64,000 nt of DNA, from the NCBI GenBank assembly GCA_038141505.1, contig JAYQIE010000042.1, positions 3,903-67,902 on the forward strand, written 5' to 3'. Shown in pieces: positions 3,995-48,190 of this stretch; within the stretch, counting starts at the first letter, position 1; every line of letters starts with the position of its first letter. The DNA comes from Francisella sp. (GTDB lineage: Bacteria > Pseudomonadota > Gammaproteobacteria > Francisellales > Francisellaceae). Below the pieces are notes generated by a model that ran no database searches, had not been told where the DNA came from, and saw nothing but the letters and a program-made list of their open reading frames with translations. A program made the translations under genes and the position numbers.

Positions 3995-4560
3995 ATGCTG
4001 CTTAGTTTCTTAGATTACTCTGCTTTGATTATCAATGTGCTATATACGATATATCTTGCGCGATTAAAAGTCTGGTCTTGGTCATTGGGCATAGTTGGTG
4101 CGATATTGCTTTTAGTGCTATTTGCAATCAAAGGAACTTACTCTTTAGTGCTTTTGCAATGTGTTTATGTGGTGTTTTTGGTTATGGTTGGTATTGTTGG
4201 CATACTCAAGGTGTCGATGACAAGAAAACTATCAAATGGATGAAGTTAAAAGATTATTGCCGTTATTTTCTGTATGTAATAATTTTATGTGGATTGTCTA
4301 TAGGATTTAATTATCTAACTGATTCTAAAGATATCATATCAACAGGTATTCTAACGGGTATAACATTTACAGCTGTAATTATGACTATAGAGAAGTTTAT
4401 GGAAAACTGGATTATTTGGATAATTTCAGATTTGTATTTTGTAGTTGTAATGTACAATGAAGGCTTGCATGGTCAAGTTATCCAAAATTTTATATTTTTC
4501 TTGACAGCCGTTTATGGGTTTTATTATTGGTTTAATAATTCAGCATCAGCCAAAAAATAA
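3995..4560 (+). CDS. pnuC: Nicotinamide riboside transporter PnuC (frameshifted)
   Basis: VWSWSLGIV, ENWIIWII, AVYGFYYW motifs. Confidence 0.85.
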
Positions 4561-6793
4561 TGATAATCAAAGTAGCACTACAAATCCCCCTAGTTATTTA
4601 TTGGATTATAAAATTGAAGTCAGTTCTATCGATATGGCTCAAAATAATCAGTCATTCCGTCAGGCTCCGACCACGGAATCTCTGCCTAATAATCAAGGTA
4701 GCCTAGGGATAAACCTTTTCGATAGAGTCTTGGTGCAAGTTGGTAAAAGAGAGCTAATTGGTTTTGTGGTAGCTAAAGATGTGACTGTTGATTACGATGT
4801 GTCAAAAGTTAAACTAATTACAAAATATCTCGATAGTCCACTAAGCCAAGATGTGCAAAAACTCGTGCGATGGTTGGCTCAATATTACTGCTGTGATTTA
4901 TACAGTGCAATTCGCCTAGCTTTACCAAATGACTATTTCAAAAATGAAATTGTAACACCAAAGCAAGAGGTTTATATCTTTAAAAATCAGTCACCAGCAG
5001 ACCATAAGCTTACAGCTAAGCAACAAGAAGTTTTAGATGAGTTTGCTGAGGGGAATTGCTCTTAGATATGAAAATCTTAAAGAAAAGCATTCTGTAAATA
5101 TAATTTCTCGTTTAATAGATAAAAACATACTTATTAAAACTACAAAGTTAGAAGATATTCCTACTGCAAACTCAAAACAAGATTTAGAAAAACAATTAAA
5201 TCAAGATCAACAAGTTGCATTGGAAGTGATATCACAGGCAAAAAAAGTTTGCTGTATTTTTATTATACGGTGTGACAGGGAGTGGTAAGACAGAAGTATA
5301 TTTACAAGCTATACAAAAGATTTTAAATACACAAAAGCAGATATTAGTGCTTATTCCAGAGATAAATCTTACACCGCAGACCATGCAGAGATTTGAGCAA
5401 AGATTTGTAGGTAAAAATAGTTACCATTCATTCTAAGCTTTCAGAAAAAGCACGACTAACTAATTGGTCGAATATTAAAGCTGGTAATGCAGACATTGTG
5501 ATATCAACACGTAGTGGGGTGCTTTCAGATTTTAAAAATCTTGGTATGATAATTGTTGATGAAGAGCATGATAGCTCATTCAAGCAGCAGTCAAGTACTA
5601 TAAGGTACAATGCTCGCGATGTGGCAATATTTAGAGCTAAAGGATTAGAAATTCCTATTATATTGGGGAGTGCAACACCATCTATCGAGAGCTATTATAA
5701 TTGCAGTGTTGGTAAATATACTCTTCTCAAACTTAGAGCAAAAGCACTTAATAATTTTAAAAATGAAGTTAGGCTTTTAGATCTAAAATCATCTATAGTA
5801 GATAATGGTATTAGTACAAAGCTTTTGAGTTACTTGAAAATAACATCAATGCACATAGTCAATCTTTGATATTTATTAATAAGCTAGGTTTTGCAAAAGC
5901 TTTGGTATGCAAGGCTTGTGGGGATGCTATTGAGTGCAAAAAATGTGATAAGCCATTTACGCTACATACACACCCGTATCAATATTTGGCTTGTCATTTT
6001 TGTGGTACTCGTAAACCTATAGCCACTTCTTGCCAAAGTTGTGATGGTGGAGAGCTCTTTATATTCGGAAGTGGCACAGAAAAAAGTCCAGTCTCGTTTG
6101 GAAGCAAAATTCCCATACAATAAGATAATTCGCTTTGATCGTACAAATGTTAAAACTATCAGTGATCTACATAGTATCAATGAGATGATAAATACAAATA
6201 TGGTTGATATTATCGTCGGTACGCAGATGATAGCAAAAGGGCATCATTTTGCAAATATCACACTTGTTGGGCTTATCAATATAGATGCTGGTTTGTATAG
6301 TACGGATTTTCATGCGATTGAGAAGACAGCTCAACTTATAGTGCAAGTATCAGGAAGGGCTGGGCGTGCTGATAAACCAGGTGTGATATTGCTACAAACT
6401 TATCAGCCAGAAAATAAGTTGTTGCAGTTATTAGTGAGTAGGGATTATTTGGAATTTTTGGATTATCTACTTGAGCAACGCCAATACGCAAGCTATCCAC
6501 CGTATACATTCCAAGCTCAGATAATGACAGAGTCAAGGAATGAAGCCGAAGTATTAAGTCTTCTTAAAAATCTTTATGAGGAATTATCTGTACAAAAAAT
6601 GGTACAAGTATCAGCACCATTACCAGCATTACACCTAAAGAAAAATAATGTTTACAGATATATTTTACTTATGACAGCAAGTTCACGAAAAGATATTAAT
6701 GGCATTATAAAGTGGGTGAAGAAGAATGTTCAGTCTGAACTACCAAGCTCAATCAAAATGTATTTTGATATTGATCCTATTGAGTTGGTTTAG
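4560..6793 (+). CDS. priA: Primosomal protein N' (several indel breaks; carries an in-frame repeat insertion)
   Basis: ATG at 4560 ([10 protein letters not shown]), GVTGSGKT Walker A region ~5270, DEEHD, CxxC zinc module, [27 protein letters not shown]-terminus. Confidence 0.93.
4649..4682 (+). repeat. Palindromic CGTC/RPE-like repeat inside priA
   Basis: CAGTCATTCCGT-caggctccgacc-ACGGAATCTC, encodes [11 protein letters not shown]. Confidence 0.8.
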
Positions 6794-6859
6794 CAATATA
6801 ATTAGAAAAGCACTCTTTACTGATTTGAGTGCTAGTGATTAGGGGAAAGTATTGAGAAA

Positions 6860-6948
6860 TTAATCTTCTTTTTGTCAATTCTGCTTGCTACAAAACATCC
6901 AACAGCTACTGCTGAAAATGCGGATAAGAACCAATAAATATAATACAT
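6860..6948 (-). CDS. cydX: Cytochrome bd small subunit CydX (~29 aa; not in ORF track; probably one A missing)
   Basis: MYYIIWFLSAFSAVAVGCFVASRIDKK directly after cydB, RBS AGGA; single TM helix with a MYYxxW start. Confidence 0.8.
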
Positions 6949-16583: not shown

Positions 16584-16652
16584 CAGTCATTCCCGCGGAG
16601 GTGGGAATCTCTCAAATAGTGAGGAGATCCCGTGTCAAGCACGAGGATGACG
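16584..16652. repeat. Intergenic inverted doublet of CGTC/RPE-like palindromes
   Basis: CAGTCATTCCCGCGGAGGTGGGAATCTC (16584-16611) and GAGATCCCGTGTCAAGCACGAGGATGACG (16624-16652) between convergent cyoE and lpxD. Confidence 0.85.
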
Positions 16653-16677
16653 ATAATTTTATATATGTATTGTAATA

Positions 16678-19079: not shown

Positions 19080-19348
19080 TGTTTGAATTCTCAAATTGAT
19101 TAGTTTAATAGATTTTATAATATAGTTATTGCTTTGTAAATCATGGTTTTAAAGCAATACGCTATCCTTTAATAATAGTTTTATTTTGATTTTATGGTTG
19201 GTTTATAACGACTAGCTATACAGTATTTATGAATTATGCCTTATAAATAATATTTCGGTTATAACAAAAATATAAAATCTATCTTGAAATAGTTGTATTA
19301 GCCCCTATACTCTTATAAAGTCATATTTGCATTTTTGGGAGAAGCTAA

Positions 19349-23696: not shown

Positions 23697-24532
23697 GAAA
23701 ATTAATTCTATCAGTAGTATTATTGCCATGTATATCACAAGCTAGTATCTGGAGTGATGCGTGGCAGACAAAAGATCAGCAAGGTGCAAGCAGCTTTGAA
23801 GCAGGGGATTATAAGGCATCAGCACAATCTTTTGAGAATACTGATTGGAAAGGCTCAGCTTACTATAAAGCAAAAGAGTATGACAAAGCTTATGATGAGT
23901 TTAAAAAAAGATAGCTCAGCAACGGGACTATACAATCAAGGTAATGCTCTAACTCAATTAGGTAAATATGATGATGCTATAAATGCTTATAGTAAGGCTA
24001 TCGAAAAACGACCAGATTTTGAAGATGCAAAAAGTAACTTAAAGATTGCCGAAGAGCTTGAAAAGCAAAAAGACCAAAACCAGAATCAGCAAGACAACAA
24101 AGACAACAAAGACAACAAAGACAACAAAGACAACAAAGACAACAAAACAAAGACAACAAAGACAACAAAGACAACAAAGACAACAAAGACAATAAAGACA
24201 ATAAAGACAATAAAGACAATAAAGACAATAAAGACAATAAAGACAATAAAGACAATAAAGACAATAAAGACAAACAGGATCAACAGGATCAACAGGATCA
24301 ACAGGATCAACAGGATCAACAGGATCAACAGGATCAACAGGATCAACAGGATCAACAGGATAAGCAGGATGAAAATTCTAAAGAGCAAGAAGCTAAAATA
24401 GCTGAAGCTCGTGAAGATGAGATGAATAAAAAAGAAGCTGATAAGCTTTTAGCGATGATTGATGATGATCCAGGTGGACTTTTGAAACATAAGTTTGCGA
24501 GAGATTATCAAAGAATGACAGAAAAAGCGTGA
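23687..24532 (+). CDS. TPR protein, BatC-like, with low-complexity KDN/QDQ repeat linker (frameshifted)
   Basis: YNQGNALTQLGKYDDAINAY TPR; C-terminal IDDDPGGLLKHKF in the corrected frame; stop TGA 24530-24532. Confidence 0.88.
24090..24364 (+). repeat. 9-bp coding tandem repeat array: (AAAGACAAC)~10, (AAAGACAAT)9, (CAGGATCAA)9
   Basis: Units counted directly; one truncated 5-nt unit (AAAAC) at 24144-24148. Confidence 0.97.
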
Positions 24533-39861: not shown

Positions 39862-40559
39862 ATGGAAGTAAGATTTAAAATTTATAGATATAATCCAGAA
39901 GTAGACAAAAAACCTTATTATGATGAGTATGTGGTTACTGTTGAAAATGAAGGTGTAAAAGTTTTGACTGCTCTTGAGCTTATCAAAGAGCAAGACCCAA
40001 CTCTAGCAATGCGTAGATCGTGTCGCGAGGTGTGTGTGGTTCTGACGGTATGAACATTAACGGCAAAACCGTTTAGCTTGTATTACATCTATTGGTGAGC
40101 TAAAGCAACCAATCAAAATCAATCCTTTACCAGGCTTGCCTGTAGTTAGAGATTTGATTGTTGATATGAAACAGTTCTTTAAAAACTATGAGAAAGTTAA
40201 GCCGTATCTTATCAATGATGAAGAGGCTCCTACAAAAGAGACTTCAGTCACCTGAAGATAGAGCTAAGTTAGATGGTTTGTATGAGTGCATTTTGTGTGC
40301 TTGTTGTACAACAGCTTGCCCATCATTCTGGTGGAATCCTGATAAGTTTATTGGACCATCTGGACTGTTACAGGCTTATAGATTTATCGCAGATTCGCGT
40401 GACACAGCTACAGAAGAAAGACTTAATGATTTAAAAGATCCGTTTAGCTTGTTTAGATGTAGAACTATTATGAGTTGTGTTTCGGTATGTCCTAAAGGTC
40501 TAAATCCTACAGAGGCAATCGGTAAAATTAGATCAACTTTATTAAGCAAGAGTGTATAA
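39862..40559 (+). CDS. sdhB: Succinate dehydrogenase Fe-S subunit (indel breaks)
   Basis: [40 protein letters not shown]. Confidence 0.96.
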
Positions 40560-48000: not shown

Positions 48001-48085
48001 GCACTGGTGGTGGAATTGGTAGACACGCCATCTTGAGGGGTGGTGTCCGAAGGATGTGTGGGTTCGAGTCCCACTCAGTGCACCA
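48001..48085 (+). tRNA. tRNA-Leu(GAG)
   Basis: GCACTGG acceptor, GGAATTGGTAGAC D-arm, TTGAG anticodon, long variable arm, GGTTCGAGTCC, CCA end; conserved secG-leuU synteny; G-run one base short. Confidence 0.93.
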
Positions 48086-48190
48086 AAAATTTATTTTTAT
48101 AAAATCTCATAATTTTCTTTTCTGAATATTGTTTATTACAATCATTGCTTATCGTATACTAAATGCAGATATATCACGATTTAGAAAATT

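Follow-up and report, generated by a model that had tools for sequence, protein, structure and literature searches.

Hairpin repeats of a REP/REPIN-like kind read in frame within priA and recBCD of a Francisella genome

What becomes of selfish DNA that lands within a protein gene? The Rickettsia palindromic elements (RPEs) provide one answer: these palindromic selfish repeats lie in frame inside many unrelated protein genes, and the host gene stays open (PMC10969869). [quoted passage not shown] Here, we describe a family of hairpin repeats in a Francisella sp. assembly (GCA_038141505.1; hereafter G000), examined in a stretch of 64,000 nt from contig JAYQIE010000042.1 (the window; G000:C42:3903-67902), where one copy lies within an 84-nt, in-frame insertion in the replication-restart gene priA and ten more within recB, recC and recD. 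We consider it probable, short of certain, that these are selfish, REP/REPIN-like hairpins, comparable to RPEs, that long proteins under weak constraint retain in loops able to tolerate them. If so, the family represents a second, gammaproteobacterial case beside Rickettsia of selfish palindromic DNA translated within working genes.

Like RPEs, the Francisella repeats are short and palindromic and add peptide in frame: PriA is encoded by a single 744-aa frame, recB is open in relatives, and a queF-like and a DUF1365-like gene gain 11 and 9 residues, respectively. This likeness is one of features, not of sequence homology. RPEs are about 100–150 bp long and encode a conserved peptide, whereas here the units measure 25–35 nt and the doublets 70–85 nt, stems are variable, and peptides recur (SVIP..DPES) but in several frames; further differences are that ~22% of the copies are coding, that the host is gammaproteobacterial and that recBCD is where they concentrate. 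With the repetitive extragenic palindromes (REPs) of Pseudomonas and enterobacteria, their inverted doublets (REPINs) and the REP-associated tyrosine transposases (RAYTs), the family shares imperfect palindromes that are short and have compensated stems, inverted doublets, copy numbers of tens to a hundred, and a RAYT-like Y1 gene, copies being more numerous where this gene was found. The likeness is partial for the 5′ tag, which is GTCAT and not the classical GTAG, and for the location, mostly extragenic but with a fifth of the copies translated inside genes, which is atypical of REPs. The RAYT-like gene is neither flanked by repeats nor above the NCBIfam cut-off. Bacterial MITEs resemble the hairpins in being non-autonomous, in their terminal inverted repeats and in their capacity to sit in or fuse to ORFs; in contrast to MITEs, there is no consistent target-site duplication here, and no parent insertion sequence was identified, none having been searched for. 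No Rfam family covers the repeats, and in literature searched for palindromic elements, REPs or MITEs of Francisella we found no earlier description of such a REP/REPIN-like family.

A 28-residue insertion in PriA

The features of priA on which the following rests are, in window coordinates:

4560..6793, + strand: priA, replication-restart helicase (NCBIfam priA/PRK05580 match), ATG at 4560
4622..4705, + strand: in-frame insertion of 84 nt (28 codons) in priA, edges good to a few bases
4649..4684, + strand: core of the priA hairpin repeat (covariance-model match, 34 bits, E 5.8e-6)

A preliminary description of this DNA had placed a repeat-derived hairpin inside an extra segment of PriA, and the segment proved to be a genuine insertion of 28 aa with no counterpart in 16 relatives. 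The spacing between the LLDY and FDRV motifs is 7–8 residues in these 16 PriA proteins and 36 in that of the window (+28 aa), and nucleotide alignment against the two closest genomes (G005 and G054, each 81% identical to the window's PriA in the 3′-DNA-binding domain) leaves a clean 84-nt gap at about 4622–4705: the empty site. Within the 3′-DNA-binding domain, the insert occupies the loop that follows the LLDY strand. Profile alignment to solved PriA structures puts it immediately ahead of residue 25 in the E. coli protein (2d7e), where the counterpart of the insert site is the loop after the strand bearing F-D-Y-L.

The hairpin itself (4651–4682) comprises a GTCAT tag (4651–4655), a 7-bp stem (4654–4660/4673–4679) and a 3′ ATC; the pattern cited in the preliminary description occurs a single time in the window, at 4653–4679, with 0 occurrences expected in shuffles. 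Repeat-derived sequence accounts for the central ~31 nt of the insertion, which match the tsaB copy (contig C20 of G000, 144419–144449) at 100% identity and two intergenic copies at 93.5%, while the remaining ~53 nt have no second copy anywhere in the genome. The direct repeat AATAATCA flanks the priA copy and no other copy. As none of the priA loci of the 16 relatives holds a hairpin, the priA case is a one-off, probably a recent, single and species-specific insertion of the selfish-hairpin type.

Is the host gene intact? In the assembly, priA is split into five ORF pieces by six indels of 1–2 nt; related genomes have open priA genes of 716–737 aa. To window positions 4400–6900 we aligned contigs of four metagenome runs (X1–X4) on marine or estuary samples, no two runs belonging to the same study. 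Relative to the window, these contigs show indels at 4585 (+C), 5050 (−1), 5240 (−1), 5412 (+AA), 5822 (+T) and 6080 (−1), and applying these six differences produces a single priA frame of 744 aa (716 + 28). The insert is retained in the metagenome contigs: X1, X2 and X3 span 4620–4710, and no joint skips it. Since these contigs both carry the insert and restore the 744-aa frame, priA is not a pseudogene, and in natural populations the gene that holds the insert is intact. The start codon at 4560 also corrects the preliminary description, whose ORF began only past the C-run at 4586–4590, from which the assembly has lost 1 nt.

Metagenomes of marine, seawater and estuary origin, produced by several studies, contain DNA near-identical to window positions 4400–6900 (some contigs at least 99% alike). 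Given this presence in marine and estuary samples, the source organism seems to be a Francisella of marine habitat and not a symbiont of ticks. In run X2, a loose contig end reveals a related species with a different 5′ sequence in the same sample.

The repeat family and its host genes

In a repeat unit, the AT of the GTCAT tag is also the start of a stem of 7–9 bp (mostly 8–9); a short loop, CTTGA in many cases, separates it from the second arm of the stem, which is followed by ATC(T/C). Stem sequences vary among subfamilies, with self-complementarity kept, and the GTCAT tag is invariant in 45 aligned copies, which were chosen by a scan that required it. A short ATCA or (T)TC often directly precedes GTCAT. 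Many units are paired with an inverted partner 10–30 nt away, forming REPIN-like doublets with inverted ends (GTCAT...ATGAC); recB contains two versions, 89% identical, of one 81-nt doublet. A strict target sequence or a consistent target-site duplication was not seen across copies. The usual extragenic form is represented in the window by one doublet, found with the covariance model:

16584..16653: intergenic inverted doublet, REPIN-like (16584–16613, +; 16622–16653, −)

Strict tag-plus-hairpin matches number 67 in G000 as compared to about 10 in shuffles. A covariance model built from the 45 copies reports 82 copies at E <= 1 and, with the extras of the strict scan, gives a census of 88 hairpins in 66 clusters. 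Of 25 genomes of the genus, 23 contain the family, as do four other Francisellaceae genera, with 0 to at least 88 copies each; the whole-genome searches scored about 150 candidates per genome, so that copy numbers are lower bounds. Approximately 78% of the G000 copies are extragenic and 19–20 are translated (~22% coding); in the well-assembled sister genome G005, 30 of 31 copies lie outside ORFs.

Which protein genes host the hairpins? Run with filters off, the covariance model reports 13 confident copies (E <= 0.01) in the window: one in priA, one in recC, eight in recB, one in recD and the intergenic doublet. Elsewhere in the window there are only weak matches, probably chance or intergenic. 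The preliminary description had counted 11 coding copies in these four genes and none in the others, and both counts stand for the window. Its further suggestion, that coding copies are confined to repair and restart genes, applies within the window and fails genome-wide, with at least eight further in-frame copies in murE (two), tsaB, a queF-like, an mnmC-like, an hrpA-like and a DUF1365-like gene and one unnamed ORF. Conversely, five of the repair genes it had named for checking turned out to be free of the repeat: comparison with the census revealed no copies at the mfd, mutS, polA, uvrD/rep and recG loci of G000. Together, housekeeping hosts and copy-free repair genes mean that there is no repair-category effect on coding copies.

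The assembly is rich in errors, and its gene models rest on comparison with a single sister genome, G005. Against this genome, clean gaps mark the copies in murE (+10 aa), the queF-like gene (+11) and the DUF1365-like gene (+9), while the tsaB hairpin lies within a replaced variable loop; in murE, another repeat type is found close to the two hairpins. All 19 coding copies read in open frames, using five of the six orientation/frame combinations, and hydrophilic peptides such as SVIP..DPES and SHS(G/D/H).. recur among them. The eight host genes with a G005 orthologue share 51–78% identity with it, that is, they fall between the 3rd and 39th percentile of 819 genes (median 81%; Mann-Whitney p = 3.6e-4), and host genes are long (median 566 aa versus 265 aa for others). 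The four longest of the 95 least conserved genes include those of RecB, RecC and RecD, whose identity to the sister genome is 51–56% against the median of 81%. These properties fit the first of two alternatives raised in the preliminary description, namely tolerance of inserts in large, loop-rich proteins.

One further hairpin (contig C15 of G000, 40107–40139) overlaps the 3′ end of a long gene, whose G005 orthologue has 502 aa, and apparently supplies the last ~17 codons and the stop of its host, so that the protein would be extended at its C terminus and not interrupted by an insert. Likewise translated in frame is a second repeat type, richer in G+C (..SPLERGADRRGV.. or ..LPHQ..TATPS.QRG..). 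It was seen in RecB (G003 and G002; recB of L225 and L234) and in the RecD proteins P0002, P0005, P0006 and P0008 of other Francisella lineages, and apparently also in murE of G000 (C18, about 19130–19190).

What moves the hairpins? Hairpin-rich relatives share a syntenic ORF of ~190 aa that adjoins mnmC and encodes an HUH-like motif and a conserved Tyr region. It passes the cut-off of Pfam Y1_Tnp (PF01797) and matches NCBIfam NF047646, 'REP-associated tyrosine transposase', at 1e-13 and 50 bits, below the model cut-off of 80. The proteins of the relatives led to three counterparts in G000:

C12:61033-61600, − strand: RAYT-like gene with one frame break, adjoining an mnmC-like ORF and syntenic with the gene of the hairpin-rich relatives
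C32:2799-3170, − strand: RAYT-like paralogue or fragment
C38:4509-5014, − strand: RAYT-like paralogue or fragment

Pfam PF01797 returned no match in G000 and thus missed all three, a failure of sensitivity given that the gene was found with the relatives' proteins. Across 48 genomes, the median number of hairpins is 19 with a RAYT-like gene and 1 without (p = 7e-4; like the other cross-genome association tests used here, this one ignores shared ancestry). We infer that RAYT-like HUH/Y1 transposases probably mobilise the hairpins.

Repeated insertion in RecB, RecC and RecD

The recBCD block of the window contains the following features:

48163..51363, + strand: recC (NCBIfam recC match), with an in-frame stop at 48790–48792 in the assembly
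48504–48535, antisense: recC hairpin (covariance model), peptide SRDSGSESGMTG
52543..56237, + strand: recB (NCBIfam recB match), three ORF pieces in the assembly
53658–53688 (+), 53705–53735 (−), 53754–53783 (+), 53802–53831 (−): recB hairpins 1–4, filling the gap between helicase motifs II and III
55217–55248, + strand: recB hairpin 5 (covariance model)
55620–55649 (+), 55668–55697 (−), 55721–55752 (+): recB hairpins 6–8, before the conserved FCLKDI..KTLKE block
56236..58071, + strand: recD, 611-aa open frame (homologues)
56961–56991, + strand: recD hairpin in sense orientation, ~12 extra residues

Within the 8.7-kb coding span of G000 recBCD, the 10 hairpins compare with 0.52 expected (P = 2.6e-10); counted as clusters, there are 5 versus 0.39 expected (P = 5.5e-5). 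All eight recB hairpins read in open frames; two adjacent doublets share one site, and a further doublet and a lone copy share another. In the RecD alignment, the extra segment SSYTKNSHAELV is restricted to the window's protein, and the inserts of other lineages differ from it in kind and position.

Other species, too, have hairpins in these genes. The recBCD loci of 20 relatives yielded 27 model matches (E <= 0.05), 21 of which are intragenic (recB 12, recC 4, recD 5), although the three genes make up 37% of the DNA searched (binomial P = 2e-5, shared ancestry again ignored), and hairpins reside in recBCD genes of 11 of these 20 genomes. The enrichment in recBCD is therefore real and recurrent across the genus. 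Three hypervariable loops stand out in the RecB alignment. Loop 1, between helicase motif II (DEFQDTD...YP) and motif III (LLLMIGDPKQAIYGF), spans 4–6 residues in ten genomes; in G000, G054, G013, G052 and G009 it is occupied by GTCAT-hairpin doublets, the types of which differ, and other genomes carry a different repeat type (..SPLERGADRR..) or remnants at this place. G000 and G054 share one doublet there, whose frame in G054 has been kept while its stem has decayed, an observation that speaks against the hairpin itself being under selection. In relatives that carry inserts, the recB genes are open (1188–1250 aa), and recBCD of the sister genome G005 is free of hairpins.

The surroundings of the block are variable. 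Between recC and recB lies a 336-aa ORF (51464–52474, +) without a Pfam or NCBIfam match, in the position held by ptrA in the E. coli operon, and in relatives the recC-recB gap ranges from 0.4 to about 7 kb. A tRNA gene (48001–48082, +) is located directly upstream of recC. The stretches that border the recBCD block lie 17.5 kb apart in G005, whose recBCD is found elsewhere in the order recB-recD-recC, as in G009. In this clade, the recBCD operon has changed its place or its gene order. We considered a horizontal origin of recBCD, seeing that RecD is only 51% identical to that of G005 and that the locus differs; it does not seem to be needed, as G054, whose PriA is likewise 81% identical, has RecB at 71% identity and these genes evolve fast.

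Tolerance, function, targeting or decay

In the account that we favour, hairpin copies would land mostly between genes and in a minority of cases within them. Intragenic survivors would be those that keep the frame and add a short hydrophilic loop at a tolerant part of the protein, with a selective filter presumably removing the rest and the inserts themselves presumably serving no function. RecBCD would act as the main sink, its RecB, RecC and RecD loops being colonised repeatedly in many Francisella lineages, as suggested by the hypervariable loops in the three proteins, and new copies may insert beside old ones. Several observations sit less well with this account. Of the 84 inserted priA bases, only 31 are repeat-derived, so that the repeat does not account for the rest. 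An AlphaFold prediction of the PriA N-terminal domain reached a mean pLDDT (predicted local distance difference test) of 54.7, with the lowest confidence in the insert region, and such a model is too poor to place the insert as a harmless surface loop. RAYT-like genes are not flanked by hairpins (best match E 0.57 within ~700 nt, nine genomes), and in several genomes with 16–33 copies a RAYT-like gene was not detected. Moreover, tolerance alone does not explain why recBCD is preferred over PolA, Mfd and MutS.

Could the inserts be kept because they alter RecBCD, the priA copy being part of a restart and recombination theme? They might tune a nuclease/helicase that would otherwise degrade DNA intermediates of the element, or diversify surfaces targeted by inhibitors. 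The 10 recBCD hairpins against 0.52 expected and the 21 of 27 locus matches that are intragenic in the 20 relatives can be read this way, as can the occupation of the same loops in distant species, the hairpin type ACCCGT/ACGGGT with its variants, seen only in recB and recC (G000, G052, G007 and G012), and the place of RecBCD among the least conserved long proteins (51–56% versus a median of 81%). However, the five other repair genes compared are copy-free, priA is occupied in this species only, housekeeping genes unrelated to DNA also carry copies, recBCD of G005 is clean, and the orthologous copy in G054 has decayed; in addition, an unrelated repeat type occupies the same RecB loop, as would be expected if the site were permissive and not if there were a specific partnership. 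On balance, we regard a functional or conflict link of this kind as quite unlikely. We would also give little credence to a link between family and RecBCD beyond tolerance, be it that the element alters the enzyme that destroys its intermediates or that loop diversification is selected; if true, it would explain why loops are recolonised across Francisella while other long repair proteins stay clean. The repeatedly invaded RecBCD loops make the choice between tolerance and function open to experiment. Alternatively, clustering may reflect landing and not tolerance, with insertion preferring existing copies or a target motif in recB. The grouping of 88 hairpins into 66 clusters, the adjacent doublets in recB, the crowded murE, the 81-nt recB doublet present twice at 89% identity and the ATCA or (T)TC that often precedes GTCAT are in line with such mutational targeting. 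Against it speak the lack of a strict target sequence or duplication across copies, the direct repeat AATAATCA being found at the priA copy only, and the fact that all surviving coding copies are in frame, for which a selective filter is needed in any case; as the explanation, targeting thus appears unlikely.

A last reading holds that priA and recBCD are pseudogenes of a shrinking genome, and that the repeats sit where selection has gone. At face value, the assembly (1.47 Mb, 44 contigs, 33.7% G+C) invites it: priA is in five pieces, recB in three, recC has a stop, the completeness score is 60.7%, and 644 of 938 loci are broken when ORF proteins of G005 are placed onto G000. Yet rpoB and rpoC are broken as well (seven pieces in three frames at 93% identity, and four pieces at 79%, respectively), the probability of being intact drops with gene length in a Poisson-like manner (~1.3 frame-breaking indels per kb), and half of the breaks fall in homopolymers of 5 or more; examples of indels in the window are those at 4585, 5050, 5240, 5412, 5822, 6080 and 6868. 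The breakage consequently represents assembly indel errors, and both the 60.7% completeness and the apparent pseudogenes reflect sequencing error, not gene loss or genome decay, which is a practical warning to users of this assembly. With the metagenome contigs mending all six priA indels while keeping the insert, and with recB open (1188–1250 aa) in relatives that have inserts, we rejected the pseudogene reading of priA and find decay in general hardly credible.

Breaks are far fewer across recBCD (about 3 in 8.7 kb) than in priA (6 in 2.2 kb). Elsewhere in the window, positions 24048–24391 consist of 9-nt tandem repeats of two unit types (about 38 units) inside a gene that matches a 221-aa ORF of G005, where they encode a low-complexity stretch of D, N, K and Q.

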